Origin: an uncultured Actinomycetes bacterium
GTDB taxonomy: Bacteria > Actinomycetota > Thermoleophilia > UBA2241
Reading direction: 5' to 3'
Assembly (NCBI GenBank): GCA_963709345.1
Contig: CAVPVX010000011.1
Span: 192,001 to 256,000 of the forward strand
DNA length: 64,000 bases
Of this stretch, positions 2 to 48,705 are shown one piece after another. The notes below the pieces were generated by a model. The model ran no database searches. It had not been told where the DNA came from and saw only the letters and a list, made by a program, of their open reading frames with translations. Position numbers and translations under genes: made by a program. Each line of letters opens with the position of its first letter. The first letter of the stretch is position 1.

Positions 2-91
2 ATCATCGCCGCGGTGTACGTGGTCGCCAACCTGACGGCCGACATCCTCACGATCCTCGTCAGCCCACGACTCAGGACGGGCCTGCGATGA
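2..91 (+). CDS. ABC peptide/nickel-type permease (DppB/OppB-like), 3' end only
   Basis: Frame reads IIAAVYVVANLTADILTILVSPRLRTGLR*, the typical DppB C-terminus; its TGA overlaps the next ATG (ATGA). Confidence 0.85.
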   Translation: MIAAVYVVANLTADILTILVSPRLRTGLR

Positions 92-1011
92 GCACTCCAG
101 AGATGAGAGTGACCGACTCGGAGCTCGTCGAGCCGCCGGTCGTGCACGCCGACAACCGGCCCTCCGAGTGGCTCATGATGCTGCGCGAGGCGTGGCGCAT
201 GGGCCGCACCAAGATCGGCGTCGGCATCTTCGCGATCATCGTCCTCATCGCCGTCGTCGGCCCGTGGGTGGCGCCGTACTCGCCCACCGAGTTCGTCGCG
301 CCGCCGTTCTCGCCGCCCGAAGTCTCCAAGATGTGGCTGGGCAGCGACTACATCGGCCACGATGTGCTCACGCGCGTGCTCTACGGCGGCCGTACCGTCA
401 TCCTGCTCGCCCTCGCGGCCACGGTCATCGGCCTCGTCCTGGGCGTGACCCTGGGACTTGTCACCGGCTACGCGCGGCGCTGGATCGACGAGTCGATCAT
501 GCGCATCCTGGACGTCGTCCTCGCGTTCCCGCAGATCGTGCTCGCGCTGCTCTTCGTTTCGATCCTTGGGCCGAGGCTCTGGCTCATCGTGCTCATCGTC
601 GGCATTTCGCACGCGCCGCGCATCGCGCGCGTCGCGCGGGCTGCCACGCTCGAGGTCTCGCAGCGCGACTTCGTGCTCGCCGCCGAGGCCTTCGGCATCG
701 CGCGCTGGAAGATCCTCTTCAACGAGATCCTGCCGAGCATCACCAGCCCGCTGCTGGTCGAGTTCGGCCTGCGCCTCACCTACTCGATCGGTGTCATCGC
801 CGCGCTGTCGTTCCTCGGCTTCGGCATGCAGCCGCCGGCGGCCGACTGGGGCCTGATGATCAACGAGAACCGCATCGGCCTCATCATCCAGCCGTGGCCG
901 GTCGCGGTCCCCGTGATACTCATCGGCATCCTGACGATCGGCACCAACCTGATCGCGGACGGCCTCGGCCGCTCCCTGATCGGCATCGAGCGCGACACGG
1001 GGGTAGGGTGA
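88..1011 (+). CDS. ABC peptide-type permease (DppC/OppC-like)
   Basis: WLGSDYIGHDVLTRVLYGGR, EAA-type loop, ALSFLGFGMQPPAADWGLMI. Confidence 0.93.
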   Translation: MSTPEMRVTDSELVEPPVVHADNRPSEWLMMLREAWRMGRTKIGVGIFAIIVLIAVVGPWVAPYSPTEFVAPPFSPPEVSKMWLGSDYIGHDVLTRVLYGGRTVILLALAATVIGLVLGVTLGLVTGYARRWIDESIMRILDVVLAFPQIVLALLFVSILGPRLWLIVLIVGISHAPRIARVARAATLEVSQRDFVLAAEAFGIARWKILFNEILPSITSPLLVEFGLRLTYSIGVIAALSFLGFGMQPPAADWGLMINENRIGLIIQPWPVAVPVILIGILTIGTNLIADGLGRSLIGIERDTGVG

Positions 1012-2831
1012 TGGAGACCGCTACTGAGAACACCGCTGCTGCTCCGGAGCTCGAGGCCGTCCTCAAGGTCGAGGGACTGCGCATCGTCCTCGACCCCTCG
1101 GGCGTCGACATCGACGACGACATCTCGCTGGCGATCCACCGCGGCGAGGTTCTGGGGCTCGTCGGCGAGTCCGCGTCGGGCAAGACGACCGTCGGAACCA
1201 GCTTGCTCGATTACCAGCGCCGCGGCGCCAAGATCGCTGGGGGGCATGTCGAGATCGACGGCCGTGACATCCTTGCCATGGATCCCGGCACGTTGCGCAG
1301 CGTCCGCGGGGGGCAGATCAGCTATGTGCCCCAGGACTCCTCGGCGGCGCTGAACCCTGCGCTGCGCATCGGCACGCAGCTCATGGAGATCCTCGAGGTG
1401 CACGGCTTCGGCTCGTCGTCGGCGGACCGTGACGCCCGCCTTGCTCAGATGATGTCGGAGGTGCTGCTGCCGTCGGACAAGCAGTTCCTCCGCCGGTACC
1501 CGCATCAGCTCTCCGGCGGCCAGCAGCAGCGGGTCGCCATCGCCATGGCGTTCGCCAACCGGCCCAAGGTCATCGTCCTCGACGAGCCGACCACCGCCCT
1601 CGACGTGACCACCCAGGCGCACGTGCTCGACACCGTGCGCGACCTCACCAAGTCGTACGGGGTCGCGGCGCTGTACATCACCCACGACCTCGCCGTGGTC
1701 TCCAACCTCGCCGACCGCATCGCCGTCATGTACGCCGGCAGGGTGGTCGAGACGGGCACGCGCGACGAGCTGTTCGACCAGGGGCACCACCCGTACACGC
1801 GCAAGCTGCTCGCCTCGATCCCCGACATCACCGGGGAGCGCGCTCTGCGCGGCATACCCGGCTGGGCCCCCCGTCCGGGACAGCGACCCAGCGGCTGTTC
1901 CTTCACGCCGCGCTGCGACTGGGCGGTCGACAAGTGCGGGGAGCAGTTCCCGCCGGTTGAGCAGGTGAGCCCGGGGCACAACGTTCGCTGCTGGCGCTAC
2001 ACGGAGGTCGGCGCGCAGACGGCCGTGCTCGACGTCCAATTGCGCGACAAGTCGCTCTCCGCTCGTGAGACGCCGGACAAGCAGGTCATCAGCGTGCGCG
2101 ACGTGACGGCTTACTACCAGCACAAGGAGACGCTGCACGACATAAGTGCCAGTCTCAGCGAGCGCCGCTGCCTGTCGCTCGTCGGCGAGTCGGGGTCCGG
2201 CAAGACGACCTTGGCGCGCTGCATCGCCGGCCTGCACCGGCACAAGATCGTCGGCGACATCGACTTCATGGGCAAGCCCCTGGTGCGCGACGCGCGCCGC
2301 CGGCCGCGTGCGACCCGGCAGTCGATCCAGTACATCTTCCAGAGCCCCTACAGCTCGCTCAACCCGCGCAAGACGATCGCCCAGATCCTCTCGCAGCCGC
2401 TGAAGGTCTTCTTCGACCTCTCGCGCGACGAGATGGAGGATCGGATGGTGAAGGCGCTCGAGCAGGTGGCGCTCGACTCCTCTCTGCTGAGCCGCTACCC
2501 GGACCAGCTCTCCGGCGGCGAGCGCCAGCGTTTGGCCATCGCCCGCAGCCTGGCAGCCGAGCCCACGGTGCTGATCTGCGATGAGGTGACCTCGTGGCTG
2601 GACGTCTCCGTGCAGGCGGCGATCATCGAGCTGCTGGCGGCGCTGCAGCGCGACATGGGTCTCTCGATGCTGTTCGTGACCCACAACCTGGCGCTGGTGC
2701 GCAGCATCTCGCAGGAGGTCGCGGTGATGAACGAGGGCCGCATCGTCGAGTACGGGCTCGTCGACGCGGTGCTCGAAGACCCGCAGGCTGACTACACCAG
2801 GAAACTGCTGTCGGACACACCGACGGTGTAG
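1011..2831 (+). CDS. ABC peptide-type ATP-binding protein with two fused ATPase domains (DppD/F)
   Basis: ATG at 1011 overlaps the upstream stop; two Walker A motifs (GESASGKT, GESGSGKT), two LSGG signatures, Cys-rich oligopeptide-ABC segment. Confidence 0.93.
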   Translation: METATENTAAAPELEAVLKVEGLRIVLDPSGVDIDDDISLAIHRGEVLGLVGESASGKTTVGTSLLDYQRRGAKIAGGHVEIDGRDILAMDPGTLRSVRGGQISYVPQDSSAALNPALRIGTQLMEILEVHGFGSSSADRDARLAQMMSEVLLPSDKQFLRRYPHQLSGGQQQRVAIAMAFANRPKVIVLDEPTTALDVTTQAHVLDTVRDLTKSYGVAALYITHDLAVVSNLADRIAVMYAGRVVETGTRDELFDQGHHPYTRKLLASIPDITGERALRGIPGWAPRPGQRPSGCSFTPRCDWAVDKCGEQFPPVEQVSPGHNVRCWRYTEVGAQTAVLDVQLRDKSLSARETPDKQVISVRDVTAYYQHKETLHDISASLSERRCLSLVGESGSGKTTLARCIAGLHRHKIVGDIDFMGKPLVRDARRRPRATRQSIQYIFQSPYSSLNPRKTIAQILSQPLKVFFDLSRDEMEDRMVKALEQVALDSSLLSRYPDQLSGGERQRLAIARSLAAEPTVLICDEVTSWLDVSVQAAIIELLAALQRDMGLSMLFVTHNLALVRSISQEVAVMNEGRIVEYGLVDAVLEDPQADYTRKLLSDTPTV

Positions 2832-2843
2832 GTGGGCTCGGCG

Positions 2844-2869
2844 GGCGGGCGGACGCAACTCCGCCCGCC
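2844..2869 (+). terminator. GC-rich hairpin after the ABC operon
   Basis: GGCGGGCGGA-CGCAAC-TCCGCCCGCC; no clear U-tract. Confidence 0.4.
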
Positions 2870-2996
2870 GCCGGATCGCCTTCTCTCGTCGCACCCTGCC
2901 GCCGGTCGTGCCGGCTTCGCGGCTCCTCCGGCGCACGGAGTCCTACAGCGATCGGACCAACGGAATCGACCCAAGCATGAAGATCGGAGGAGGCCC

Positions 2997-4448
2997 GTGC
3001 GTGCGCACATGACCTGGCTGGACGAGACCGAGAAGCGGTCGTTCGTCGAAGAGGCGCTGGGCATCCTCGAGCGCGTGGGCGTCGAGCTCAAGGGGTCGGC
3101 GGCGCTGACCGTCCTCGCGGACCTCGGGGCGGACGTCGATCTCGCCACCGGGATCGTGCGTTTTCCGCCCGACCTGGTGCTGCGCGCCGTCGAGGCGTGC
3201 CCGCGCCGGGTGCTCTTCGCCGGGTCGTCGCCCGAGCACGACGTGGCGCTGGACGAGGGAGAGCCGGCGCACTTCTGCTCGTCGGGCTGCGCCGCGTTCG
3301 TGCTCGACCACGAGACGGGCAGCAGGCGTCCCTCGACGCTGACCGACCTGCAGGCGGCGACGATCCTGCTCGACGAAGTTCCCGAAGTCGACGTCCTGTG
3401 GACGACGATCACGGCCGGCGACGTGCCGGTCGAGATCCGCGAGCTGGTCGTCTGCTACGTGGTGCTCACCGAGACGCGCAAGCACGTCACGCTCGTCGAC
3501 AGCCCCTCGCAAGCCGAGCCGTTGCTGCGCATCATGGACGTGGTCTCGGGAGACGCCGAGGCGTTCCGGGAGCGGCCGCGGTTCAGCACGCTGCTCACCG
3601 CGGCGTCTCCGCTCCGCATCGACGGGCCGCTTCTCGACTTCCACGCGGCCACGGCGCGGCGCGGGGCGCCCGTCGAGGTCTACACAGTGCCCATGGCTGG
3701 AGCCACGTCGCCGGTGACGCCGGCCGGGACCGTCGTGCAGGGTCTGGCCGAGTTCCTGGCGATCGCGACCGCCCTGCAGGCGCTGGCTCCGGGGGCCCGG
3801 GTCGTCATGGGAGTCTCGGGCTCCATCATGGACATGCGTTCCGCGGGGGTCTCGTACGCAGCGCCGGAATGCACGCTGATGAACGTCGCCTGCGTGGAGC
3901 TCGCGCATCACCTGGGAGTGCCTGCGGCCGTTCCGGGCCTCGCGACCGACGCCAAGTACGCCGGCGTGCAGGCGGGGTATGAGAAGGCGCTCAAAGGCCT
4001 CGCGACGGCCGGCGTGGGCGCCGACGTGCTGAGCGGCGGCGTGGGCATGATCGACTCGGTCAACACGCTGTTCCTGCCCCAGATCGTCCTGGACGCGGAG
4101 GTGGCCGGAATGATCCGCCGCGTGCTCGGCGACGTCGCCACCGGGCGCGACGACATGATGGTGGAGATGATCGAGCGGGTGGGCATCGGCGGCGACTTTC
4201 TCAAGGAGAAGGAGACCGCCCGGCGGCTGCGCGCCGGCGAGCACTTCGCCCCCGCGATCTCGTCACGCCAGGCCTACGACCAGTGGGTCGGCGACGGGCG
4301 CGACGAGGTGGCTCGGGCGAGGGAGCGCATGGATGCGCTCTTCGCCGCCCGGGCCGAGCGCGGCCGGATGCTCCATGAGGAGACCCGGGCCGAGCTCGCC
4401 GCCGTCTGCGGGGTGACCGCGGAGATGGAGCTCGCGCTCGGCCACTGA
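2997..4448 (+). CDS. Trimethylamine:corrinoid methyltransferase (MttB) superfamily, non-pyrrolysine
   Basis: GTG after GGAGGAGG; SPL...MAGATSPVTPAGT, PGLATDAKYAGVQAGYEK, VGIGGDFL motifs; no in-frame amber codon. Confidence 0.9.
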   Translation: MRAHMTWLDETEKRSFVEEALGILERVGVELKGSAALTVLADLGADVDLATGIVRFPPDLVLRAVEACPRRVLFAGSSPEHDVALDEGEPAHFCSSGCAAFVLDHETGSRRPSTLTDLQAATILLDEVPEVDVLWTTITAGDVPVEIRELVVCYVVLTETRKHVTLVDSPSQAEPLLRIMDVVSGDAEAFRERPRFSTLLTAASPLRIDGPLLDFHAATARRGAPVEVYTVPMAGATSPVTPAGTVVQGLAEFLAIATALQALAPGARVVMGVSGSIMDMRSAGVSYAAPECTLMNVACVELAHHLGVPAAVPGLATDAKYAGVQAGYEKALKGLATAGVGADVLSGGVGMIDSVNTLFLPQIVLDAEVAGMIRRVLGDVATGRDDMMVEMIERVGIGGDFLKEKETARRLRAGEHFAPAISSRQAYDQWVGDGRDEVARARERMDALFAARAERGRMLHEETRAELAAVCGVTAEMELALGH

Positions 4449-4514: not shown

Positions 4515-4557
4515 TTGACACCTGGACGGGGAGCCCTTAGGTTTCCACCTGGGTGGA
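4515..4557 (+). promoter_or_regulatory. Sigma70-type promoter with an adjacent palindromic operator candidate
   Basis: TTGACA(4515)-N17-TAGGTT(4538), followed by TCCACC-TG-GGTGGA (4544-4557). Confidence 0.65.
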
Positions 4558-4579
4558 TACCGCAGGAGAGGAAGGAAGC

Positions 4580-5953
4580 ATGGCAGAGCAGGATCCGGCC
4601 GTGGCCGGGGGGGTCAAGGAGGAGTTTCTCGAGCAGCACCTCTGGCCGCCGTTCACGCAGATGCAGAACCTCAAGCCCATCGTGATGGAGCGAGCCGAGG
4701 GCGCGCTCGTCTGGGACAGCGACGGCAACGAGTACATCGACGCGTTCGCCAGCCTCTGGACGGTCAACGTTGGTCACGGCCGCACCGAGATCCACGACGC
4801 CATCAAGGCGCAGATGGAGAAGCTCTCCATCTACCACATCTTCCAGATCGCCAACGAGCCCGCGGTCAAGCTCGCGAACAAGGTCGCCCAACTGGCGCCC
4901 GGCGACCTCGACCACGTGTTCCTCACGCTCGGCGGCGGGGAGTCGGTCGAGACCGCCGTCAAGATGGTGCGCCAGTACTGGCGCAACAAGGGCAAGGGCA
5001 CCAAGTACATGGTCATGTTCCGCGACCGCTCGTACCACGGCACGACCATGACCAGCACCAGCGCCCAGGGCCTCACCGTGAACCGCGCCAAGTTCGAGCC
5101 CATGCTCCCGGGCTTCATCAAGCTCGGCGCTCCCTACTGCTACCGCTGTGCCTGGAACAAGACCTACGGTGAAGACTGCAAGATGGAGTGCGCGAAGCAG
5201 GTCGAGACGGAGATCGACTTCTACGGCCCCGAGAACGTCGGCACCATGCTCGGCGAGACCATGATCGGCACCGGCGGCGTGATCCCGCCGCCGCCGGAGT
5301 ACTGGCCGATGGTCAACGACATCTGCAGGGCGAACGACGTCCTCGTGATCAACGACGAGGTCATCACCGGCTTCGGTCGCAGCGGCACCTGGTTCGGCTT
5401 CGAGCAGTTCGGCTCGAACCCCGACCTCGTCACGCTCGCCAAGGGCCTCTCGAGCGGCTACCTGCCGCTCGGCGCGGTGCTCGCGCGCGACCACGTCTAC
5501 GAGGCGTTCCTCGGCGGCCCCGCCGAGGCGTTCATGAGCGGCGCCACCTACATGGGGCACCCACTGTGCTGCGCCGCCGGCGTCGCCAACCTCGAGATCA
5601 TCGAGCGCGAGAAGCTGGTCGAGCGCTGCGCCGAGGTGGGAGCGTATATGCAGGAGGGGCTCGCCACACTGCTCAAGCACCCCATCGTCGGCGACGTGCG
5701 CGGCGTCGGCCTCGTCGCCGGCATCGAGTACGTGCAGGACAAGGAGACGCGCGAGTGGTTCGCGCCGGCGCAGGGCGTCGCCGCCAAGATCCGCGACGAG
5801 GCCTTCAAGCGCGGCGTCTTCGTGCGTCTGCTGGGGGGCGGCCACGTGACCGCGGTCGCGCCGCCGTTCATCATCAGCAAGGAGCAGATCGACACCGTCG
5901 TCGGCGCCCTCGACGAGTCCATCGGCGTCGTCGAGAAGCAACTCGGTTACTGA
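4580..5953 (+). CDS. Class III PLP aminotransferase (omega-amine/putrescine:pyruvate-like)
   Basis: LWTVNVGHGR, GGESVETA, SYHGTT, DEVITGFGRSG, TLAKGLSSGYLPL with the PLP lysine. Confidence 0.93.
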   Translation: MAEQDPAVAGGVKEEFLEQHLWPPFTQMQNLKPIVMERAEGALVWDSDGNEYIDAFASLWTVNVGHGRTEIHDAIKAQMEKLSIYHIFQIANEPAVKLANKVAQLAPGDLDHVFLTLGGGESVETAVKMVRQYWRNKGKGTKYMVMFRDRSYHGTTMTSTSAQGLTVNRAKFEPMLPGFIKLGAPYCYRCAWNKTYGEDCKMECAKQVETEIDFYGPENVGTMLGETMIGTGGVIPPPPEYWPMVNDICRANDVLVINDEVITGFGRSGTWFGFEQFGSNPDLVTLAKGLSSGYLPLGAVLARDHVYEAFLGGPAEAFMSGATYMGHPLCCAAGVANLEIIEREKLVERCAEVGAYMQEGLATLLKHPIVGDVRGVGLVAGIEYVQDKETREWFAPAQGVAAKIRDEAFKRGVFVRLLGGGHVTAVAPPFIISKEQIDTVVGALDESIGVVEKQLGY

Positions 5954-5984
5954 CCGCTCACAGCGAACCGCAAGGAGCACGACA

Positions 5985-7004
5985 ATGGCAAAGCCCAGAG
6001 TAGGTGTGGTCGGCTACGGCGTCATCGGTCAGCGTCTGGCCGACGGCGTCGCCCTGCAGGAGGACATGGAGCTCGTCGGCGTCGTCGACGTGGCCCCGAC
6101 GCTCTCGACGAGGGCTCTCTGCGAGTCCGGCATGCCCTACGACCTGTACGTCGTCGAGGCGGGCCAGAAGGCCGCCTTCGACGCGGCCGGCATTCCCGTG
6201 AGCGGCACCATGGACGACCTGCTTGGCAAGGTCGACATCGTGCTCGACTCCTCGCCCGGCGGCGTCGGCCGCAAGAACAAGGAGCTCTACCAGGCGAAGG
6301 GCGTCAAGGCGATCTTCCAGGGCGGCGAGACGAACGACATCGTCGACGTCTTCTTCCACGGCTACGCCAATTACGAGAAGGGCGTCGGCAAGGACTACCT
6401 CAAGCTGACGAGCTGCAATACGACGGGCCTCATTCGCGCCGTCGACTGCCTCGACCGCGAGGTCGGCGTGGAGCGCGTGATCGTCACCATCGTGCGCCGC
6501 GTCGCCGACCCGGGCGACACGCACCGCGGCCTCGTCGACGTGGCCCAGGTGGAGCCGGTGCCGAACCATCAGGCGCTCGACCTCATGACGATCATGCCGC
6601 ACATCGAGGCCACCGGCCTGCTCGTGCACGTGCCGACCACGCACGGCCACATCATCAACGTCATCGCCACCACCAAGGGCGACATCAGCAAGGAGCGGGC
6701 GCTCGAGCTCTTCGAAGCCCACCCGCGCATCCGCAACGTCAAGATCGCCGACGGCTTCAACAGCAACTCGGCGCTCTTCCGCTACGCCCGTGAGCTCGGC
6801 AACAAGCGCGCCGACATGTACGACATCGCCGTGTTCGACGAGACCATCGCCAAGAGCGGCCGCGAGTTCATGTTCGCGATCAACATCCCGCAGGAGGCGG
6901 TCGTCATCCCCGAGACCGTCGACGGCATCCGCGCCGCGCTCTCCCTGCAGACCGACCGCCTTGAGGCCGTGGGCCTCACCAACACGTACCTCGGGCTCGC
7001 CTGA
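5985..7004 (+). CDS. Type II (archaeal-type) phosphorylating glyceraldehyde-3-phosphate dehydrogenase-like protein
   Basis: GYGVIGQRLADGVALQEDM, IFQGGE, catalytic SCNTTGL, RRVADP, QEAVVIPETVDGIRA. Confidence 0.9.
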   Translation: MAKPRVGVVGYGVIGQRLADGVALQEDMELVGVVDVAPTLSTRALCESGMPYDLYVVEAGQKAAFDAAGIPVSGTMDDLLGKVDIVLDSSPGGVGRKNKELYQAKGVKAIFQGGETNDIVDVFFHGYANYEKGVGKDYLKLTSCNTTGLIRAVDCLDREVGVERVIVTIVRRVADPGDTHRGLVDVAQVEPVPNHQALDLMTIMPHIEATGLLVHVPTTHGHIINVIATTKGDISKERALELFEAHPRIRNVKIADGFNSNSALFRYARELGNKRADMYDIAVFDETIAKSGREFMFAINIPQEAVVIPETVDGIRAALSLQTDRLEAVGLTNTYLGLA

Positions 7005-7052
7005 GCGGCACGGACTGACGGCACAAGCGGCTCGGGGAGGCGAGAGGCGCAG

Positions 7053-8303
7053 GTGAAGTACGGCATCCACACCCTGGATGACTTCGAGTGGGGCGGCAAG
7101 GTCGTGCTCTGCCGGGTCGACATCAACGCGCCGCTCGACCCCGAGACGGGGGGGCTGCGCGACGTCACCCGGCTGGAGGGTTGCGCGCCGACGGTCCGCG
7201 AGCTGGCGGAGGCCGGCGCCAGGGTCGTGCTCCTCGCCCACCAGGGCGGCGACCTCGAGTACCACAACTACGCGACGACCGAGAAGCACGCGCCGGTGGT
7301 GAGCGAGCTGACCAGGCGCCCCGTCGCCTTCATCGACGACGTCTGCGGGCCGGCCGCGCGCGAGGCCATCGGCCGGCTCGCGGACGGCGACGTCCTCCTG
7401 CTCGACAACGTGCGCTTCTGCGCCGAGGAGCTGACTCTCTTCGAGCGCAAACTCGACCTCTCGCCCGAGCAGCAGGCGAAGACGCTGGTGGTGCGCAAGC
7501 TGGCGCCGCTCGCCGACCTCTACGTGTGCGACGCATTTGCCGCCGCGCACCGCTCGCAGCCCACCCTGGTCGGCTTCGAGCAGCTCCTTCTGTCGGCCAT
7601 GGGCCGGCTTTTCGAGCGCGAGTACTCCAACCTTGCGCGTCTGCGCGCCGAGCCGGCGCGCCCGTGCGTGTTCGTGCTCGGCGGGACGAAGATCCAGGAG
7701 GCCTTCCCGATGATGGCAGCCGCTCTGCGCGACGGCATGGTCGACACCGTCCTCGCCGCCGGCGTCGTCGCGAACGTCATGCTCGCCGCCAAAGGCGTCG
7801 ACATAGGCGAGCCGTCCCTGGAGTTCATCAGGGCCGGCCAGCTGGAGAGGTTCATCGAGGAGTCGAAGGCGATCCTGGCCGATCACGGCGACAAGGTCGT
7901 GCTGCCCGCCGACGTCGCCTGCGTGAAGGCCGGCGGCCGCGTCGAGCTGGCGTCGGCCGATCTGCCCGTGGACGCGCAGCTCGTCGACATAGGCCACCGG
8001 GCCGTCGACGAGTACCGGCGGCGCATCGCCGCCGCCGGCACGGTGTTCGCCAACGGCCCGGCCGGCGTCTTCGAGCAGCCCGAGACCGAGTACGGCACGC
8101 GCTCGCTCTGGAAGGCGATGGCGACCACCGCCGGCTTCAGCGCCCTGGGCGGCGGCGACTCCGTCGCCGCCATGAACCGCTTCGGCCTCGCCGGCCGCTT
8201 CGACTACGTCTGCACGGCCGGCGGCGCCATGGTCCAGTTCCTCAGCGGCAAGCCGATGCCCGTGATCGAGGCGCTCAAGGCCTCGGCTGCGCGCTTCGCA
8301 TGA
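7053..8303 (+). CDS. Phosphoglycerate kinase-like protein (archaeal-like)
   Basis: RVDINAP, LLDNVRF, DAFAAAHRSQ, LGGTK, NGPAGVFE, GGGDS, TAGGA. Confidence 0.9.
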   Translation: MKYGIHTLDDFEWGGKVVLCRVDINAPLDPETGGLRDVTRLEGCAPTVRELAEAGARVVLLAHQGGDLEYHNYATTEKHAPVVSELTRRPVAFIDDVCGPAAREAIGRLADGDVLLLDNVRFCAEELTLFERKLDLSPEQQAKTLVVRKLAPLADLYVCDAFAAAHRSQPTLVGFEQLLLSAMGRLFEREYSNLARLRAEPARPCVFVLGGTKIQEAFPMMAAALRDGMVDTVLAAGVVANVMLAAKGVDIGEPSLEFIRAGQLERFIEESKAILADHGDKVVLPADVACVKAGGRVELASADLPVDAQLVDIGHRAVDEYRRRIAAAGTVFANGPAGVFEQPETEYGTRSLWKAMATTAGFSALGGGDSVAAMNRFGLAGRFDYVCTAGGAMVQFLSGKPMPVIEALKASAARFA

Positions 8304-9574
8304 AGCTGACGATCCCCTACGGCGACGGGGAACTGCCGTTCGAGTTGCCCGATGCCTGCCTGATGGACGTCGTACGCCCCGGCTGCGGCCTCGGGGAGGA
8401 GGCGGACCCGCCGACGGCGCCCTCCGCCGCCGAGGAGCAGGCGGAGATACGGCGTGCCCTGGCGGAGCCCGTCGGCACGCCGCCGCTCGCCGAGCTGGCG
8501 GCCGGGGCGGGCAGCGCGGCCGTCGTCGTCAGCGACGTCACGCGGCCATGCCCCTCGTATCGCTTTCTGCCGGCCCTGCTCGCCGAGCTGGCGCCGATCG
8601 CGCCGGAGCGCGTCAGCATCCTCTTCGCGCTCGGCGGTCATCGCGCCCACACGCACGAGGAGCAGGTGCGACTGGTCGGCGAGGAGGTGGCCGCGAGCGG
8701 CGTCCGCCTCCTCGACCTCGACCCGGCGCGCTGCGTGCCGGTCGGCACGACCTCGCGGGGCACGCGCCTCGAGGTCTTCAAGCCGTATCTGGACGCCGAC
8801 CTGCGCGTGTGCACCGGCAACATCGAGTACCACTACTTCGCCGGGTTCAGCGGCGGGGCCAAGGCCGTGGTGCCGGGTCTGTGCTCCTACGCCGCCATCA
8901 GCGACAACCACAGCATGATGCTGGCGCCGGCGGCGAGGGCCGGGGTCATGGACGGCAACCCGGTGCGCGAGGACATCGACGAGGCCGGCGGCATGATCGG
9001 CATCGACTCCATCTTCAACGTGCTGCTCGACGAGGACAAGCGCATCATCGGCGCTGTGGCCGGGCACCATCTGGAGGCTCACAGGGTGGGGGCGGCAGCG
9101 TACGACCGGCGCTGCGACCTGCGCATCCCCGCGCCTGCCGACATCGTGATCGCTTCGCCCGGGGGCAGACCCAAGGACATGAATCTCTACCAGGCGCAGA
9201 AGACGCTCGACAACGTGGGCGGCGCGGTCCGTGACGGAGGCGTCGTGATCCTCGTGGCGCGCTGCCGTGAGGGATTCGGTCAATCGGTCTTCGAGGATTG
9301 GATGCGCGGCATGGGCTCGCCGCAGGCGCTCATCGACAGGATCCGGGAGGAGTTCGTCCTCGGCGGCCACAAGGCGGCGGCGATCGCCGGGCTGCTCGCC
9401 CGGGCGCGCGTCTATCTGGTCTCGGAGTTCCCGGACGATGTGGTCGAGAGCATGTGCATGCGGCCCTTCGCCACCGTCGACGGCGCCGTGCGGGCCGCCC
9501 TTGCCGAGGTCGGCGCCGACGCTCGCAGCCTCGTCGTGCCGCACGGCAGCCGGGTCACGGCCGGGACCGCGTAG
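8300..9574 (+). CDS. larA: Nickel-pincer LarA-family 2-hydroxy acid racemase/epimerase
   Basis: ATGA-coupled to PGK; SDVTRP, GGHR, HYFAGFSGGAK, DNH, NLYQAQK catalytic and cofactor motifs. Confidence 0.9.
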   Translation: MKLTIPYGDGELPFELPDACLMDVVRPGCGLGEEADPPTAPSAAEEQAEIRRALAEPVGTPPLAELAAGAGSAAVVVSDVTRPCPSYRFLPALLAELAPIAPERVSILFALGGHRAHTHEEQVRLVGEEVAASGVRLLDLDPARCVPVGTTSRGTRLEVFKPYLDADLRVCTGNIEYHYFAGFSGGAKAVVPGLCSYAAISDNHSMMLAPAARAGVMDGNPVREDIDEAGGMIGIDSIFNVLLDEDKRIIGAVAGHHLEAHRVGAAAYDRRCDLRIPAPADIVIASPGGRPKDMNLYQAQKTLDNVGGAVRDGGVVILVARCREGFGQSVFEDWMRGMGSPQALIDRIREEFVLGGHKAAAIAGLLARARVYLVSEFPDDVVESMCMRPFATVDGAVRAALAEVGADARSLVVPHGSRVTAGTA

Positions 9575-9733: not shown

Positions 9734-10948
9734 TCACTTCGCCTTCGCCGCGGCCTTCTTCTCCTTGACCGGCTCGGTGCCGGGCTTGACGGCCATGTTG
9801 CGGTAGACCTGCTCCATGTCTTCGGCGGTGAACTTGCGCGGGTTGTTGTTCCAGAGCCGCGCCTGCGTGAGGGCGCCCTTGACCAGGTCCGGGATCGCCG
9901 ACTCGGGGATTCCGACCTCGTTCAGGTACTGCGGCACGCCGAGGTCGTCGGCCAGCGTGCGCAGCGCCTGCAGCGTGACCTCGCAACCCTCGCGGTCGCT
10001 CAGCCCTTCCATGTTCTCGCCCATGAGCTCGCCGATCTCGCGGAAGAACTGCGGGCAGGCCAGCATGTTGTACTCCATGACCCAGGGGAGCATGAGCGTG
10101 TTGGCGATGCCGTGCGGCACGTGGAACATGCCGCCGACCGGGTAGCTCATGGCGTGGACGGCGCCGACGCCGGCGTTGCCGAAGGCGATGCCGCCGAGCA
10201 GCGAGCCGATGGCCATGTTGTGGCGCGCCCAGGCGTTGGTCCCGTCGAAGACGGCGGTGCGGATGCTCTGGCTGATGAGCTTGATGCCCTCCGCGGCCAG
10301 CGGGTCGGTATGCATGGTGGCGTTGACCGAGATGTAGGCCTCGATGTTGTGGATGAGTGCGTCCATGCCGCTGGCGGCGGTGACGCCGGGCGGGCAGCTG
10401 TAGGTGAGCACGGGGTCGACCATGGCGATGTTGGGGATCAGGTGGGGGCTGACTACCCCCTGCTTCACATTGAGCTTCTCGTTGGCGAAGATGCCGATCG
10501 CGGTGACCTCGGTGCCCGTACCGGCCGTGGTCGGCACGGCGATGAACGGCAGCCCCTTCTTCGGCACCTGGTCGACGCCGACGTAGTCCTCGATGCGGTC
10601 GTCGGTGGGGGCGAGCACCGCGACCAGCTTGGCGACGTCGATGGCCGAGCCGCCGCCGAAGCCGACGATGAGGTCGTACTCGCCCTTCTTGGCGATGTCC
10701 ACGATCTTCTGGACGCTGCCCATGGGGGGCTCGGGGACGGCCTTGTCGCAGATGCCGACTTCCATACCCGCTTCACGCAGCGGGGCCTCGACGCTGTCCA
10801 CGGTGCCGCAGCAGGCCACGCCGGGGTCGGTGATGACGAGCACCTTGGTGGCGCGGAGCTTCTTCGCCTCGGCGCCGAGCTGCGCGACGCAACCGTTGCC
10901 GGTGATGAGCGTCTTGGGCGCCCGGTGGACGCGGATCTTGGTATCCAT
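9734..10948 (-). CDS. Iron-containing alcohol dehydrogenase (candidate 4-hydroxybutyrate dehydrogenase)
   Basis: GGGSAID, PTTAGTGTEVT, DALIHNIE, HAMSYPVGGMFHVPHG; substrate inferred from context. Confidence 0.9.
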   Translation of the reverse strand: MDTKIRVHRAPKTLITGNGCVAQLGAEAKKLRATKVLVITDPGVACCGTVDSVEAPLREAGMEVGICDKAVPEPPMGSVQKIVDIAKKGEYDLIVGFGGGSAIDVAKLVAVLAPTDDRIEDYVGVDQVPKKGLPFIAVPTTAGTGTEVTAIGIFANEKLNVKQGVVSPHLIPNIAMVDPVLTYSCPPGVTAASGMDALIHNIEAYISVNATMHTDPLAAEGIKLISQSIRTAVFDGTNAWARHNMAIGSLLGGIAFGNAGVGAVHAMSYPVGGMFHVPHGIANTLMLPWVMEYNMLACPQFFREIGELMGENMEGLSDREGCEVTLQALRTLADDLGVPQYLNEVGIPESAIPDLVKGALTQARLWNNNPRKFTAEDMEQVYRNMAVKPGTEPVKEKKAAAKAK

Positions 10949-10974: not shown

Positions 10975-12285
10975 CTATCTCGTGAAGCGGCCGGGCCCGT
11001 AGACGGCGGCCGCCTCCTCGCGAATCTGGTCTCTGAATGCCGGGTCGGCGATCTCCAGCAGGGCTTCGGCACGCTGCCGCAGCCCCAGGCCGCGCAGGTG
11101 GGCGATGCCGTGCTCGGTGACGATGTAATCGACGTCGGCGCGCATCGTGGTGACGGCGGTGCCGGGGGCGAGGGCGGCGGCGATGCGCGACACCGTCCCC
11201 TTCTTCGCCGTGCTCGGCAGAGCGATGATCGCCTTGCCGTCGCGGCTGCGCGCGGCGCCGCGGACGAAGTCGACCTGGCCGCCGATGCCGGTGAACTGCG
11301 TCGCGCCCATCGTGTCGGCCACGACCTGCCCCATGACGTCGACCTGGAGGGCGGAGTTGATGGCGACGACGCGGTCGTTCTGGCCGATCAGGTACGGGTC
11401 GTTCGTGATGTTGACCGGGAACATGTTGACGGCCGGGTTGTCGTCGACGAAGTCGTAGAGACGGCGGGTCCCCATGAGGAAGGTCGCCGCTATCTTGTCG
11501 CGGTTGATCGCCTTGTTGCGGTTGGTGATCACGCCCTCGTTGTAGAGGTCGACGACGCCCTCGCTGAACATCTCGCTGTGGATGCCGAGGTCGTTCTTCT
11601 CGTGCAGGAAGGCGAGGACGGCGTCGGGGATCGCGCCGATACCGAGCTGCAGGCAGGCCCCGTCGTCGATGAGGCCGGCGATGTGCCTGCCGATGGCCTC
11701 TTCGACGGGGCCGATCCTGGGCGGCTGCAGTTCGATGATGTCCTGCTCCGTCTCGACGATGAAGTCGAGCTCGGAGACATGGATGAAGGAGTCGCCGTGG
11801 GTACGCGGCATCTTCGGGTTGACCTGCGCGACGACGGTCCGGGCGACCTGGGCCGCCGGCTTCGTGTAGTCCACGGAGATGCCGAAGGAGCAGAAGCCGT
11901 GCTTGTCCGGCGGCGAGACGTGGACGAGGACGACGTCCGGCGGCAGGTAGCCCTCGCAGAAGAGCCTGGGGATCTCGCTGAAGAAGACGGGGATGTAGTC
12001 GCCGCGGCCGTCCTTCACGGCTTCGCGTGAGGACGCGCCGACGAAGAGCGACTGGTGGAAGAAGGAGTCGGCGTACTCCGGCCGGCAGTACTCGCCGTTG
12101 CCCATCGCGACCATGTGGTTGATCTCGACGTTCTCGAGCTCGCCGGCCCGGGCGACCAGCGCGTCGACGAGCTCGAGCGGCTCGCCGCAGGCGTGCGCGA
12201 ACACGACGCGGTCGCCTGACCTCACGCACTGCATGGCCTCGGCGGCGGTGACGTGCTTGCCGGCGTAGTCGGTGTTCCAGTCCAT
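10975..12285 (-). CDS. Acetyl-CoA hydrolase/transferase family, 4-hydroxybutyrate CoA-transferase (Cat2/AbfT-like)
   Basis: LQLGIGAIPDAV, DLGIHSEM, GIGGQVDFVRGA, VTEHGIA. Confidence 0.9.
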   Translation of the reverse strand: MDWNTDYAGKHVTAAEAMQCVRSGDRVVFAHACGEPLELVDALVARAGELENVEINHMVAMGNGEYCRPEYADSFFHQSLFVGASSREAVKDGRGDYIPVFFSEIPRLFCEGYLPPDVVLVHVSPPDKHGFCSFGISVDYTKPAAQVARTVVAQVNPKMPRTHGDSFIHVSELDFIVETEQDIIELQPPRIGPVEEAIGRHIAGLIDDGACLQLGIGAIPDAVLAFLHEKNDLGIHSEMFSEGVVDLYNEGVITNRNKAINRDKIAATFLMGTRRLYDFVDDNPAVNMFPVNITNDPYLIGQNDRVVAINSALQVDVMGQVVADTMGATQFTGIGGQVDFVRGAARSRDGKAIIALPSTAKKGTVSRIAAALAPGTAVTTMRADVDYIVTEHGIAHLRGLGLRQRAEALLEIADPAFRDQIREEAAAVYGPGRFTR

Positions 12286-12287
12286 CT

Positions 12288-12584
12288 CTAGTGCTCCTTG
12301 AGCTTGCGCATGATGGCGGGCGCGAGCTCGTCCTGCGGCGTGGGAACGCCGTCGACGAGCTCGCCGGCGACGACCACCGCGGTGGGGTCGTCGCTGGTGA
12401 GCATCTGGTTCGACGCGCACGCGCGGGAGCAGCCGCTCAGGTGCACGGTCGCTCCCGGGCGTAGGTCCGGATCGTCGGCGGGCAGCTCGGCGGCGACTGC
12501 CGTGCGGTCGATCTGCGGGTTGCAGCCGCCGCAGTACGCGACCTTCACGCGCTTCCCGTCGTCCGCTGTGCCCTCGCCGGTCAT
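12288..12584 (-). CDS. Small Cys-rich hypothetical protein
   Basis: YCGGCNP and LSGCSRAC motifs; tightly packed between abfD and the CoA transferase. Confidence 0.75.
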   Translation of the reverse strand: MTGEGTADDGKRVKVAYCGGCNPQIDRTAVAAELPADDPDLRPGATVHLSGCSRACASNQMLTSDDPTAVVVAGELVDGVPTPQDELAPAIMRKLKEH

Positions 12585-12588: not shown

Positions 12589-14099
12589 TCAGTCGGCGGC
12601 CACCGCCGTGGGCCTCTTGATCCGCTCCTTGTCCCACGGCTTGCCGACCTCGGCGATGGCCTTGGCCAGCTCCTTCTTGTGGTTCAGGTTGGACTGGCGC
12701 GCGATCATGATGCGCTGCGCCTGCGGCGAGCCGGCGCCGTGCATGCTCTCGGTGAGGTAGCCCACGGCCGCCGCGCCCAGAGTGAGGTTCTCGACCAGGC
12801 GCAGTATCCGCATGCGGTCGATGGTCGGTCGTGTCGCAGTTGCGCCGACCAGGTACTTCTTCACGATGGGGCCGACCTTGGGGTCGGCCAGATCCTGGGC
12901 CGACGGCATCGTGACCATCAGGCCCCCGGCGATGTCCTGCGGCGAGGCGCGCGATCTCGTAGGGGAAGCGGGTCACGTTCTGCTTGTGACGTTGGCCAGC
13001 AGCAGGTCGATCTAGGTAGTTGCCGGCCGGCATCTTCCGCCCTCGGCTGAGCAGGCGATGCCGCAGGCGAACATCGTCTCGTTGAGGTGGGTCATCTCGA
13101 CGATCTTGTCCTTGATGTGCGCTGGCCTTGGCGACGCCGTTCATCTCGGCGGCGACGGCGGCCGCGCCGATGAGCACGTCGCCCACGCCGACCTTGCAGC
13201 CGCCGTAGCTCTGACCGGTGATAGCCGGCGAAGCGCTCGACCAGCGGACCGGCGAACTCGACCTCGCCGCACAGGAAGACGTGGTCCCATGGGACGAAGA
13301 CGTCCTCGAAGACCATCAGTGCTTCCTGCCCGCCGAAGTTGGACGTTGCCGATGTCGAGGTCGTTGCCCTCGAGCTTGCGCGTGTCGCAGGTCTGGCGGC
13401 CGTAGATGTAGGTACACGCCCTCGGCGTTCGCCGGGCAGGCGAAGCTGACGGCGTAGTCCTCGTCGCCCTCGCGCATGGCGATGGTCGGCATGACGACGA
13501 TCTCGTGCGAGTTGCAGGCGCCCGGTCTGGTGCGCCTTGGCGCCGCGCACGACGATGCCGTCGTCGCGCTTCTCGACGACGTGCAGGTACATGTCGGGGT
13601 CGGGCTGCTGGTGTGGCGGCAGGCTGCGGTCGCCCTTGGGGTCGGTCATGGCGCCGTCGGCGACGAGGTCGTTGTCCTGCAGGTACTGGACGTACCTCCG
13701 GAACCGCGCGTGATACTCCGTGCCCAGTTGGCCTGGTCGATCTCGTAGGTGACCGACCAGAGCGCGTTGAGGGCGTCCATGCCGACGCAGCGCTGGAAGC
13801 AGGAGCCGGTCTTCTGGCCCAGCAGCCGCAGCATCTTGACCTTGTTCAGCAGGTCGTCGGTGGACTGGTGCAGATTGGTGAACCGGTTGACCTTCTTGCC
13901 GGTCAGGTGGCTCGTCGCCAGCATGAGGTCTTCGTGCTCGGGCGTGCTGCGCCAGTTCGTAGGTCATGGCGATGCAGTTGATGCTGGGCCGTATGAGCGG
14001 GTGGTTGACGTAATCGTCGATCCGCTCGCCGAACAGATAGACCTGCAGGTGCAGGTCGGCGAGGCTCTGGATGAACTCCTCGGGTGTCTTGAGAGCCAT
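12589..14099 (-). CDS. abfD: 4-hydroxybutyryl-CoA dehydratase (HpaB-like fold), interrupted by several frameshifts
   Basis: Pieces in three frames: MALKTPEEF, GQKTGSCFQRCVGMDA, GAMTDPKGDRS, GAKAHQTG, FAGYHR, TESMHGAGSPQAQRI. Confidence 0.88.
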
Positions 14100-14281
14100 G
14101 CGGTGCACTCCTTCCTGGCGCCCTCGGGTGGTCGGGCGCTGCGCTGGCTTGCAGGCACGGGCGCGCGCATGGGCGGGAGCGCTCGCGCGTTGGTTCGCTC
14201 CGGCGGGGCGCGGACGGCTCGCGATCGACCGTGTGACGCTCGGCGCCCTCGTGGATTCAACTATAGGAGCGCCTCCGGCGT

Positions 14282-14342
14282 TAGTCAATTAGTGACTAGG
14301 AGTCGCCAATTCCGGGGGTAGTTCTTGTACCTCTTGTACAAG
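14282..14342. promoter_or_regulatory. Two palindromic operator candidates in the divergent abfD/gdhA region
   Basis: TAGTCA-N5-TGACTA (14282-14298) and CTTGTAC-N5-GTACAAG (14324-14342) in an AT-rich patch. Confidence 0.55.
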
Positions 14343-27383: not shown

Positions 27384-28270
27384 GGTCCGCCCGCGCGTCT
27401 GGTGAGGCTCGCGACCACGCTCGCACGCGGCGCACGCGGCGAGCATCCGTTCGAGCGTCCGCGGGACCGATGGCTCCGGCCAGTGCCCTCCTCGTGCCGG
27501 ATGCTCCGCCGGAGCCGCACCGCCGATGTCGCGCCGGCGGCGAGCTGCGCCTCGGAGAGCAGGCCGGTGCCCATGACCTCGGTGACCACGCGCAGGTCGG
27601 TCTCGCGCATCAGGAGTGCATCGGCCGACTTCTGCGCCTCGGTGCGCCGATGCACGGACAGCGGCCGCGGGATGTGCCGGTGCCTGTGACCGTGGGCGAG
27701 CGCGAGCAGCCAGAACAGGTAGTCCTCGGCGTAGATGCCTTCGCGGAAGCCGCCGACGGCGTCGAACACCGCGCGCCTGTACACCGCGCCCACGCCGTAG
27801 AAGCAGGCGTCGAGCAGTTCCTCCAGGGTGCAGCCGGCCGGATCGGCCCAGCGCGCTCTGCGGCCGTGCGGCCTCGCGTCGCCCGTCGTCGTACTCGTAC
27901 CAGCCATCGGACGTGAAGACCGAGGCGCCGGGGTCGTCGCGGATGCAGGCGTCGAACGTGGCCAGATGACCGGGGAGCAGCAGGTCGTCGGCGGAGAGCA
28001 TCACGAGGAGCTCACCGCGGGCGCTGCGCACCGCGGTGTTGTAGGCGCCGCCGGAACCGCGGTTCTCCTGCGAGACGACGCGGATCCGCGAATCCGTCGC
28101 CGGGCCAGTCGCTCGGCCACGGCGCGGGTCTCGTCGGTGGAACCGTCGTCGACGATGACGATCTCCCAGTCGGTGAAGGTCTGCGCCAGCACCGACTCGA
28201 CGGTCTCGGCCAGCGTCGCCCGGGCGTTGTAGGCCGGGATCGTGACCGAGAAACGCGGCCTACCGGCCAT
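27384..28270 (-). CDS. GT2 glycosyltransferase (frameshifted, 3' end uncertain)
   Basis: FSVTIPAYNA, VDDGSTD, LSADD, EDYLFWL. Confidence 0.8.
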
Positions 28271-30490: not shown

Positions 30491-31380
30491 GTGACTCTGC
30501 GGCCGACGATGGATCGGAGCTGCTCGAGGAGTTGCCGGGCGCGCCGCTCACCAAGCAGCCACGCCGCCGTGCTCATGGCGGCGGCCTGCCTCTTCGGCGT
30601 CAGAAGACGCGGAGGTCTTGCGATTTGGGCGAGCAGTCGCTCGCGCTCCCGGATGCACTCGTCGACGGCGCGAACGTCCTCGGGGCCAAGCGCGAAGTCG
30701 CGCCGCAGATCGGAGACGAGGCGGATGTCGGAACGATAGGCGGCCACCAGGTTCGCTGATTTCTGGCCGGGGCTCACCCGGTGAAGCGAGAGGGGCTCCG
30801 GGAGGTAGCGGTGTCGTGCGCCCCCCGCCATCGCCCTGAGCCAGAAGTCGTAGTCCTCGCCGAACACTCCCACCCGGTAGCCGCCGACCGCGTCGAACAA
30901 CTCCCGCCTGTACGTGGCGCCGACGCCGTAGAAGCAGTTGCCGATCACATCGGCGAGCGACAGGGACTCCGGGATCGCCTCCGGGGGGTAGACCTCTCGG
31001 CGGGAGCCGTCCGGGTGCAGATAGTAGCCGTTGCACGAGTAGATGTCGTAGCCGCCGACATCGACCGCGCGCGCCATCCCGGCCAGATGCTGCGGCAGCA
31101 GGATGTCGTCGGCGGAGCACAGCACGACGTAGTCCCCCTCGGCCAGGGCCACGCCGGTGTTGTACGCGCCGGCAGACCCCCTGTTCGCCTGAGACACGAC
31201 TCGGACGCGCGCATCGCGCGCCGCGAACGACGCGGCGATCACCGGCGTGTCGTCGTCCGAGCCGTCGTCGACGACGACGCACTCCCAGTCGTCCCATTCC
31301 TGATCCAGGACGGCGTCGAGTGTGTCGGCGAGGGTCTCCTGAGCATTGAAGGCAGGGACGACGATGGAAAACCGCGGCAT
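30487..31380 (-). CDS. GT2 glycosyltransferase
   Basis: FSIVVPAFNA, VDDGSDD, CSADD, EDYDFWLR. Confidence 0.9.
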   Translation of the reverse strand: MPRFSIVVPAFNAQETLADTLDAVLDQEWDDWECVVVDDGSDDDTPVIAASFAARDARVRVVSQANRGSAGAYNTGVALAEGDYVVLCSADDILLPQHLAGMARAVDVGGYDIYSCNGYYLHPDGSRREVYPPEAIPESLSLADVIGNCFYGVGATYRRELFDAVGGYRVGVFGEDYDFWLRAMAGGARHRYLPEPLSLHRVSPGQKSANLVAAYRSDIRLVSDLRRDFALGPEDVRAVDECIRERERLLAQIARPPRLLTPKRQAAAMSTAAWLLGERRARQLLEQLRSIVGRRVT

Positions 31381-31441
31381 GGAGCTCCCGTGTCGGTGCG
31401 GGCGTCCCAAGAGCTTGGACGCTTCTTCCTCCCGATAGAAT

Positions 31442-35023: not shown

Positions 35024-35123
35024 GTCGAGCCTGCTAGGACGGGAACGGGCCAGCGCGGACTGCGTTCTGGCGGCGTCCGAAGATGCTGATCGGGCATGTC
35101 GCGTCGTACCTGCCGTCGCCGGT

Positions 35124-38162: not shown

Positions 38163-38278
38163 CTCCAAACCCCCGTCGATTCTGCTGCTGTCACTCACCG
38201 TCCGGACCGCTTCCGCATTCTAGCAGCACGTCGCGGAGGGGGAGGACCGTCGGGCCGCGTCGCCTCAGACGATGTTGC

Positions 38279-39154: not shown

Positions 39155-39240
39155 CGCGTTCGCCGGCGCAATGGTACCGCGCCGGATCGTCGTCGGCCCA
39201 GCGCCTCCCTTCTCGTGCGGTCGTGAGAGAATAGCGCCCG

Positions 39241-46984: not shown

Positions 46985-48701
<1,717 letters not shown>

Positions 48702-48705
<4 letters not shown>

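Follow-up and report, generated by a model that had tools for sequence, protein, structure and literature searches.

Paired archaeal-type GAPDH and phosphoglycerate kinase homologues in bacterial catabolic operons as a candidate malic semialdehyde-to-malate module

We analysed a 64,000-nucleotide stretch of DNA (hereafter, the window; ~69% G+C) from an uncultured Actinomycetes bacterium of the Thermoleophilia (lineage UBA2241; assembly GCA_963709345.1, contig CAVPVX010000011.1, positions 192,001 to 256,000), the best relatives of which are metagenome-assembled genomes of Thermoleophilia and other Actinomycetota. The subject of this work is a pair of adjacent plus-strand genes: GAP2 (positions 5985–7004; 339 amino acids; Pfam Gp_dh_C), encoding a homologue of the type-II (archaeal-type) phosphorylating glyceraldehyde-3-phosphate dehydrogenase (GAPDH), and PGK2 (7053–8303; 416 amino acids; Pfam PGK), encoding a homologue of the archaeal-type phosphoglycerate kinase (PGK) without an equivalent of Arg65. 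An earlier sequence-only reading of the window had given the coordinates and reading frames of both genes correctly. The pair is best regarded as a variant of GAPDH-II and PGK with a new function, and it probably converts D-malic semialdehyde, via 1-phospho-D-malate, to D-malate with ATP formation, the D-malate then being racemized. With slightly more reserve, we favour the broader proposal that the two archaeal-type enzymes form a widespread, so far undescribed and horizontally spread module for substrate-level phosphorylation, which would serve as the lower half of several anaerobic routes, including a transketolase-dependent inositol route free of IolC, IolJ and IolA and, in this Thermoleophilia lineage, an O2-independent route to malate from amines of the carnitine or 4-amino-3-hydroxybutyrate (GABOB) type. 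What the proposal draws on was observed directly: the altered residues, the constant pairing, the presence of second copies and the counts of neighbouring genes.

Both genes are second copies. The window's genome (98% complete) carries, on another contig, a type-I gap that adjoins a high-scoring canonical pgk, and all five of the other carriers that were examined encode a canonical PGK (510–563 bits) besides PGK2 (367–385 bits). Matching stretches were found at least 553 times in species-representative genomes, and 80 such loci served as a neighbour sample, 43 of them ('large' loci) having at least 4 kb on both sides. PGK2 adjoins GAP2 in 73 of the 80 loci, the other seven ending less than 600 bp after GAP2, and in every one of the 43 large loci. 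GAP2 is 66–96% identical over the 80 loci, which come from the Actinomycetota, Bacillota, Chloroflexota, Spirochaetota, Aminicenantes, Atribacterota, Desulfovibrionaceae and others, the carriers being mostly anaerobes; presence within the window's own class is patchy (11 of 121 sampled genomes and 3 of 65 genera). Because high identity across phyla goes together with patchy presence, the distribution fits an accessory module that has spread horizontally. Clostridium magnum DSM 2767 carries two pairs (L037 and L040), one in an operon with iol and transketolase genes and the other with E2/E3 genes, a radical-SAM protein, malic enzyme, LarA and a 3-hydroxyacyl-CoA dehydrogenase.

One change in the pair lies in the substrate site of the kinase. 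PGK2 is a full-length homologue (Pfam PGK, 340.5 bits over profile positions 1–379 of 379; closest PDB entry 2cun, E = 1.7 × 10−83). In PGK, the 3-phosphate is held by Arg65, Arg122 and Arg170, with His62 at the bridging oxygen and Asp23 and Asn25 at the 2-hydroxyl (PMC7729029, excerpt). PGK2 retains equivalents of D23, N25, R38, H62, R122 and R170 (those of H62, R122 and R170 without exception), together with the catalytic lysine of GGxK, which bears out the sequence-only reading in its claim that the D/N, Arg and His-Arg motifs are kept. That reading had also reported the loss of the basic-patch arginine with acidic residues following it, as we found throughout the family: the window has Gly at the position of Arg65 (AHQGGDLEY), each of the 68 family rows (the window plus the 67 of 73 loci with at least 90% coverage and no stop) has G, D or S there, and the acidic loop around this position is one residue longer (HQG[GDS][DT]x[ED]Y).

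For a wider comparison, 1.84 billion cluster representatives were searched with PGK2, and 122 of the best 150 (370–460 residues) were aligned with ten locus PGK2s, the window PGK2 and the genome's canonical PGK; one row gapped at the Arg65 column was left out, leaving 133 rows. An approximate tree (FastTree; SH-like supports only, in effect unrooted, with representatives that carry no taxonomy) placed the window PGK2 in a 22-row clade (SH-like support 97), none of whose members has R or K at the Arg65 column, versus 107 of the 111 rows outside it. The loss of Arg65 in this clade goes beyond chance. When the alignment was scanned for positions that tell the clade from the other rows, the Arg65 loop was the only known ligand position to differ: D23, N25, R40, H63, R121, H166, R167 and K213 (window numbering) are common to both groups, with D23, N25, R40 and K213 at least 90% conserved in each, and no compensating change was found at the equivalent of Asp218, the partner of Arg65.

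GAP2 was compared with four solved archaeal enzymes (PDB alignments to 1cf2, 2czc, 2yyy and 1b7g), to all of which it is homologous over its full length (E = 1 × 10−72 to 6 × 10−60). It passes both type-II GAPDH equivalog cut-offs (NF003251, 387.8 bits against 185; TIGR01546, 296.7 bits against 232.9). Family rows numbered 79 (78 loci and the window, two of the 80 loci being left out for incomplete matches), and in all of them the catalytic Cys140 equivalent stands in SCNTT and the motif RRxADPGD is present, the window's RRvADP providing the equivalents of Arg167 and Arg168; SCNT and RRxxDP had been described as kept, and they are. The general base, His219, has a conserved equivalent in the motif THGH. 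Alignment to the four enzymes, including those of Methanothermus and Sulfolobus, also established the reported NHQALD in place of SHHGPD: the window has PNHQALD where 1cf2, 2czc and 2yyy read PSHHGPD and 1b7g reads PSHHAKD, and [SN]HQ[AC]xD in 79 of 79 rows amounts to a change of His194 to Gln. The window also has TTHGHII versus the archaeal TTLMHxH (THGH[IL][IV] in all 79 rows, THGHI in 77). Further changes common to all 79 rows are His221 to Ile, Leu217-Met218 to His-Gly, GPIN to GL[VT][DN] and Lys33 to Asp ([VA]D[VLI]AP).

In the Methanothermus fervidus enzyme, one phosphate site is formed by Ser139, Asn141, Arg167, His193 and His194, and the phosphate of glyceraldehyde 3-phosphate (GAP) is bound by Arg167 and Arg168 (PMC12041015, citing Charron 2000; excerpt). 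We read the site that contains His193 and His194, from its position beside the catalytic Cys, as that of inorganic phosphate; in GAP2, four of its five residues (Ser139, Asn141, Arg167 and His193) are retained and His194 is changed. Because the GAP phosphate site consists of Arg167 and Arg168, both intact, the changed His194 falls outside the site assigned to the substrate phosphate. The claim that both enzymes are altered at their 3-phosphate motifs thus holds for the PGK, which has lost the Arg65 ligand, and fails for the GAPDH, whose altered histidine belongs to the other site.

The kept substrate-phosphate arginines of GAP2 agree with a substrate whose distal group is an anion, such as a carboxylate, and not with an uncharged one. 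The kept 2-hydroxyl ligands and inner arginines of PGK2, the loss of its outermost Arg65 and the kept arginines of GAP2 would together fit a shorter, singly charged anion. Lys33 of archaeal GAPDH has been tied to NADP+ use (PMC12041015, excerpt), and the Asp at this position suggests that GAP2 is a catabolic, NAD+-dependent enzyme. The main point of the sequence-only reading, that the two consecutive enzymes share a specificity for a different distal group, is probably right, with support from the second copy, the constant pairing and the fitting functions of the conserved neighbours, which would produce a 2-hydroxy aldehyde acid without a phosphate and use up malate; the GAPDH half of the motif argument on which it had drawn fell away. 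Motif sub-variants of GAP2 and PGK2 covary, as expected from co-inheritance, and we do not count this as co-evolution.

The gene after PGK2 points to malate. It encodes a LarA-family nickel-pincer racemase with a malate-racemase signature (8300–9574, plus strand), and its start and the PGK2 stop share four bases (ATGA). The protein is closer to the malate racemase Mar2 (6d6z, E = 1.2 × 10−100) than to lactate racemases (E ~1 × 10−62 to 1 × 10−60), and the best of five LarA-family NCBIfam models was NF052593 (LarAH6 malate racemase; 457.3 bits versus a cut-off of 500). At the positions of LarA1 W358 and T359 it has H and K, as do all 31 family rows (the window and 30 of the 40 loci with LarA); H or Q and K are typical of malate racemases at these positions, where the Lys is proposed to bind the second carboxylate (PMC11770544, excerpt). 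In an alignment to 5huq, read by eye, LarA1 His108, His174, Lys184, His200, Asp72, Arg75, Tyr294, Gln295 and Lys298 are all identical, and LarC (PF01969) is encoded once elsewhere in the window's genome (339 bits). By these residues and its closest matches, the window LarA would be of the malate-racemase type. The in vivo role of malate racemases is described as an open question in PMC7583248, whose Table S1 gives PGK as a neighbour in 3 of the 18 contexts of LarAH group 4, with no occurrence of 'phosphoglycerate' in the main text.

To survey partners more broadly, the 868 open reading frames of the 80 loci were clustered, 33 cluster representatives were scanned with Pfam and the families were then counted by tblastn. 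Among the 43 large loci, LarA was found in 24, malic enzyme in 10 (11 of all 80 loci) and a tartrate-dehydrogenase-type (TTC-type) enzyme in 8, with at least one of these malate genes in 33. Potential aldehyde-makers were similarly frequent: the N-terminal half of a transketolase in 18 large loci, the E1 alpha subunit of an acetoin/pyruvate-dehydrogenase-like complex in 6 and a transaminase of the window type in 8, for a total of 32 with any of the three. The operons also hold transporters, LacI, AraC or DeoR regulators and catabolic iol genes. At least two of iolB, iolD, iolE and iolG occur in 10 of the 80 loci, all 10 of which have a split transketolase; in C. magnum, for example, the order is AraC, sugar ATP-binding cassette (ABC) transporter, malic enzyme, GAP2, PGK2, transketolase halves, IolB-like, IolD, IolE and IolG, with IolD, IolE and IolG over their NCBIfam equivalog cut-offs. 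No IolC over the cut-off was found in any of five iol–transketolase genomes (best 223 versus 300 bits).

Other loci show other arrangements. In eight of the 80 (L031, L033, L048, L052, L053, L057, L080 and L083), the pair lies behind an acetoin/pyruvate-dehydrogenase-like E1, usually with E2/E3, in some cases with lipoate-ligase or radical-SAM genes, and often with a tartrate-dehydrogenase-type gene, which suggests a second, CoA-linked ketol cleavage to the same aldehyde. In Actinomycetota-type loci L039, L044, L063 and L081 (and L050), the pair follows purA-like and purB-like genes and a tartrate-dehydrogenase-type gene, and in L039, L063 and L081 it also adjoins a CoA-acylating methylmalonate-semialdehyde dehydrogenase and a major facilitator superfamily transporter.

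In the window itself, seven plus-strand genes run head to tail: a permease, an ATPase, an MttB homologue, an aminotransferase, GAP2, PGK2 and LarA, with 31 and 48 bases separating GAP2 from its flanking genes. The gene before GAP2 encodes a class-III omega-aminotransferase (4553–5953; Pfam Aminotran_3, 323 bits), whose closest PDB matches are pyruvate-dependent amine, putrescine and γ-aminobutyrate (GABA) transaminases; 17 of the 80 loci encode it at 50% identity or more, and these are the loci of close GAP2 relatives (at least 81% identical to the window GAP2). Before it lies an MttB-superfamily methyltransferase (2832–4448; Pfam MTTB, 255.6 bits), of the non-pyrrolysine type with no in-frame stop, which scores 334.7 bits with TIGR02369 (cut-off 525), has the glycine betaine methyltransferases 2qne and 9yce as its closest PDB matches and occurs at 50% identity or more in 9 of the 80 loci; it possibly demethylates a methylated amine precursor.

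The partners that recur upstream all form an aldehyde, transketolase or E1 by splitting an alpha-ketol and the transaminase from a primary amine, and those that recur downstream all use malate; malic semialdehyde is the simplest aldehyde to link them. This compound (3-hydroxy-4-oxobutanoate, OHC-CHOH-CH2-COO−) corresponds to GAP in which a carboxylate has replaced the phosphate ester. GAP2 and PGK2 would descend from archaeal-type GAPDH and PGK and have spread horizontally among bacteria and taken on a new function, with GAP2 predicted to convert D-malic semialdehyde, NAD+ and phosphate to 1-phospho-D-malate, and PGK2 to convert 1-phospho-D-malate and ADP to D-malate and ATP. The translationally coupled LarA-type malate racemase would then turn D-malate into L-malate for central metabolism, and in other hosts malic enzyme or a tartrate/D-malate-dehydrogenase-type enzyme would take the next step. 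The aldehyde would be supplied in the window by the omega-transaminase, acting on an amine of the 4-amino-3-hydroxybutyrate type, and in clostridia and others by a transketolase that cleaves 2-deoxy-5-keto-D-gluconate, the product of IolG/E/D/B. Read from its keto end, 2-deoxy-5-keto-D-gluconate has the same configuration as D-fructose. The transketolase-derived aldehyde should then have a D-GAP-like configuration, so that its oxidation would yield D-malate; and a D-malate product would explain the downstream presence of either a racemase with an L-malate enzyme or a tartrate/D-malate-type dehydrogenase. From these combined patterns we infer what the substrate and cofactor are, which stereochemistry applies and in which direction the reactions run.

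Several observations weigh against this proposal or limit its reach. Loss of Arg65 is by itself no proof of a new substrate: yeast PGK mutants at Arg65 reportedly remain active on 3-phosphoglycerate. GAP2 passes the type-II GAPDH cut-offs and retains the GAP-phosphate arginines, and activity on GAP is compatible with both. Ten of the 43 large loci have no malate gene within 8 kb, and two (L074 and L085) have neither a malate gene nor an aldehyde-maker. The IolB-like protein of C. magnum scores 105 bits versus a cut-off of 205, and PfkB kinases under the IolC cut-off occur in the five iol–transketolase genomes. Where the context is one of hexuronate or 5-keto-gluconate (UxaE, 3 of the 80 loci), tartrate semialdehyde may take the place of malic semialdehyde. 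For the window, the identity of the amine, its origin (carnitine demethylated by the MttB homologue, or ABC uptake) and the part played by MttB are guesses.

Some of these points would sit well with a conventional role, in which GAP2 and PGK2 are an extra glycolytic or gluconeogenic isozyme pair of archaeal origin, acting on GAP, 1,3-bisphosphoglycerate and 3-phosphoglycerate and merely co-located with sugar-catabolic operons that give triose phosphate. The equivalog scores, the intact catalytic residues and both GAP-phosphate arginines of GAP2, all catalytic residues and two of three phosphate arginines in PGK2, the activity ascribed to the yeast mutants and the normal use of phosphorylated sugars by transketolase all agree with it. 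We nevertheless regard such a role as rather unlikely, given that a canonical PGK is present in all six genomes examined, with a canonical gap–pgk operon in that of the window, and that several findings would be left unexplained: the clade-wide loss of the Arg65 equivalent (versus R or K in 107 of 111 others), the malate racemase, malic enzyme or D-malate-type dehydrogenase in 33 of 43 large loci and the lack of an IolC over the cut-off in iol–transketolase genomes. Moreover, the coupled omega-transaminase of the window cannot give GAP from any common amine.

A new specificity could also be directed at another distal group or chain, such as a sulfonate (sulfolactaldehyde to sulfolactate), a phosphonate, tartrate semialdehyde or an uncharged 2-hydroxy aldehyde, which we consider unlikely overall. 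The kept arginines would bind a sulfonate or phosphonate too, and split transketolases also serve sulfoquinovose degradation (PMC11659671, excerpt); however, none of the 33 scanned cluster representatives was a sulfolactate sulfo-lyase, a sulfite exporter or a phosphoenolpyruvate mutase, and the sulfonate and phosphonate readings were dropped for want of any such neighbour in that set. For tartrate semialdehyde, malate racemases also epimerize tartrate (PMC11770544, excerpt), and some loci hold UxaE and idonate-dehydrogenase-like genes, from whose C6 keto-acids a transketolase would yield this aldehyde; against it, IolG/E/D/B with transketolase yields malic semialdehyde by simple chemistry, and the malic enzyme and the H-K signature of the racemases (31 of 31) indicate malate. 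An uncharged substrate would make the conserved arginines needless. Finally, the pair could run reductively and consume ATP, with malate activated, reduced to malic semialdehyde and aminated in a biosynthesis like that of ArgB/ArgC/ArgD. Both parent reactions are reversible, and the order of transaminase, dehydrogenase and kinase resembles the general kinase/reductase/transaminase logic of the arginine and aspartate-family pathways, but the module's operons contain transporters, LacI/AraC/DeoR regulators and catabolic iol genes, the Asp that replaces the NADP-linked Lys suggests NAD+, most carriers are anaerobes, for which extra ATP is valuable, and downstream biosynthetic genes were not seen in the loci; a reductive direction would therefore surprise us. 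Oxidation of D-malic semialdehyde with ATP gain remains the reading that we prefer.

If it holds, hundreds of bacterial genomes carry 'type II GAPDH' and 'PGK' genes that are misannotated, all members of the module being currently annotated as glycolytic enzymes, and anaerobic catabolism gains a new step that yields ATP. Malyl-phosphate chemistry, which our searches of the open literature found only in engineered pathways, would occur naturally, and the D-malate on which malate racemases act would have a physiological origin. For gut, sediment and soil anaerobes, the predicted energy yields would need to be revised, as would the predicted range of substrates (inositol/phytate, keto-sugar acids and possibly carnitine-derived amines), and the single-loop change in PGK would be a compact case of a phosphate-binding site retuned for a carboxylate.

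The remaining features of the window concern its operon's boundaries and surroundings. The operon opens within the window with an Opp/Dpp/Nik-type ABC permease (88–1011, plus strand; Pfam) and the fused double ATPase of an ABC importer (1008–2831, plus strand; Pfam), and just upstream of the window (L087:4381–10831) lie a solute-binding protein (SBP_bac_5), a first permease and a divergent Lrp/AsnC regulator; the operon probably starts there, with the divergent regulator and the Opp/Dpp/Nik-type importer genes. Top NCBIfam matches of the importer components are nickel-type Opp, mostly under the cut-offs, with the ATPase passing several unrelated ones, and possible cargoes are nickel for the racemase cofactor or the amine substrate. 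A consensus scan found no promoter, and a single terminator-like site, inside the MttB gene, was at or below the shuffle expectation. No sequencing run covered half of the stretch, and RNA-library runs covered a fraction of 0.05–0.08 of it, with contigs from relatives ~90–95% alike; parts without coverage carry no meaning. One 1,153-base contig from an RNA-labelled sludge library (run X20; ~90% alike) spans the transaminase–GAP2 junction (window 5378–6517), a weak hint of co-transcription of the two genes in a relative, given that DNA can be carried over into RNA libraries.

Convergent to the operon are an iron-containing alcohol dehydrogenase (9734–10948, minus strand; Pfam) and a CoA-transferase of the acetyl-CoA hydrolase/transferase family (10975–12420, minus strand; Pfam), both of which are kept beside the operon in seven related loci (L007, L008, L010, L011, L016, L019 and L025); this cluster could form a branch that reduces the same aldehyde, or it could belong to a separate GABA/4-hydroxybutyrate route. 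Further along the minus strand, a 4-hydroxybutyryl-CoA-dehydratase-like gene lies in pieces (12589–12918, the HpaB C-terminal part, and 13092–14288, HpaB_N), broken across at least two frames, either because it is a frameshifted pseudogene or through an error in the assembly. Elsewhere in the window lie a glycosyltransferase/sugar-epimerase cluster and the branched-chain amino-acid genes ilvD, acetolactate synthase large and small subunits and ketol-acid reductoisomerase (28260–41883, 45314–49181 and 63253–63999), which are ordinary and unrelated to the GAP2–PGK2 module.

Compared with known systems, GAP2 has its catalytic residues and Arg167/Arg168 in common with the archaeal type-II GAPDHs of M. 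fervidus (1CF2), Pyrococcus horikoshii (2CZC), Methanocaldococcus jannaschii (2YYY) and Sulfolobus solfataricus (1B7G), and differs from them in being bacterial, a second copy, always paired with PGK2 and placed in catabolic operons. PGK2, in turn, is full-length and keeps the catalytic Lys and most ligands of the archaeal-type PGK of P. horikoshii (2CUN) and of canonical PGKs, and is set apart from them by the missing Arg65 equivalent, the longer acidic loop and its separate 22-row clade. In the open literature (subscription journals being outside the scope), we found no transketolase-dependent inositol route, no natural phosphorylating malic semialdehyde dehydrogenase and no bacterial type-II GAPDH/PGK pair, and malyl phosphate appeared there only in a synthetic pathway. 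That pathway, which leads to 2,4-dihydroxybutyrate and has the malyl phosphate intermediate in common with our proposal, uses enzymes that were reportedly engineered from aspartate kinase and aspartate-semialdehyde dehydrogenase. It combines a malate kinase with a phosphorylating malate semialdehyde dehydrogenase, and its abstract states that no natural pathway to 2,4-dihydroxybutyrate exists (PMC5481828 and PMC12104201, excerpts). Unlike the proposed GAP2–PGK2 reactions, it activates the carboxyl distal to the hydroxyl carbon (by our own reading of the chemistry) and runs reductively.

A closer natural parallel is the aerobic L-carnitine pathway of Acinetobacter baumannii, in which CntAB, malic semialdehyde dehydrogenase and a decarboxylating D-malate dehydrogenase lead to pyruvate, the malic semialdehyde derived from L-carnitine being oxidized specifically to D-malate (PMC11353897, excerpt). 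Malic semialdehyde as an intermediate, D-malate as the product and a dedicated D-malate enzyme are common to that pathway, as described in the excerpt, and to our proposal. In Acinetobacter, the aldehyde is made by an oxygenase and its oxidation is non-phosphorylating, of the aldehyde dehydrogenase family and without ATP gain; the GAP2–PGK2 route would instead start from a transaminase- or transketolase-derived aldehyde and proceed via an acyl phosphate, with ATP gain and a nickel-pincer racemase. For myo-inositol, the upper part of the canonical pathway (IolG, IolE, IolD, IolB, IolC, IolJ and IolA) is retained as IolG/E/D(/B) in 10 of the 80 loci, whereas its lower part is apparently replaced by a split transketolase, GAP2 and PGK2, with or without racemase and malic enzyme, for a predicted balance of +1 ATP at PGK2 versus −1 at IolC; the inositol route of Dysosmobacter is, unlike this one, of the IolC/aldolase type (PMC13311982, excerpt). 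Lastly, the window LarA has the H-K pair and the catalytic and nickel-pincer nucleotide (NPN)-binding residues of Mar2/LarAH6 from Thermoanaerobacterium thermosaccharolyticum (6D6Z), and it differs in falling under the NF052593 cut-off and in having a specific upstream source of D-malate proposed for it.

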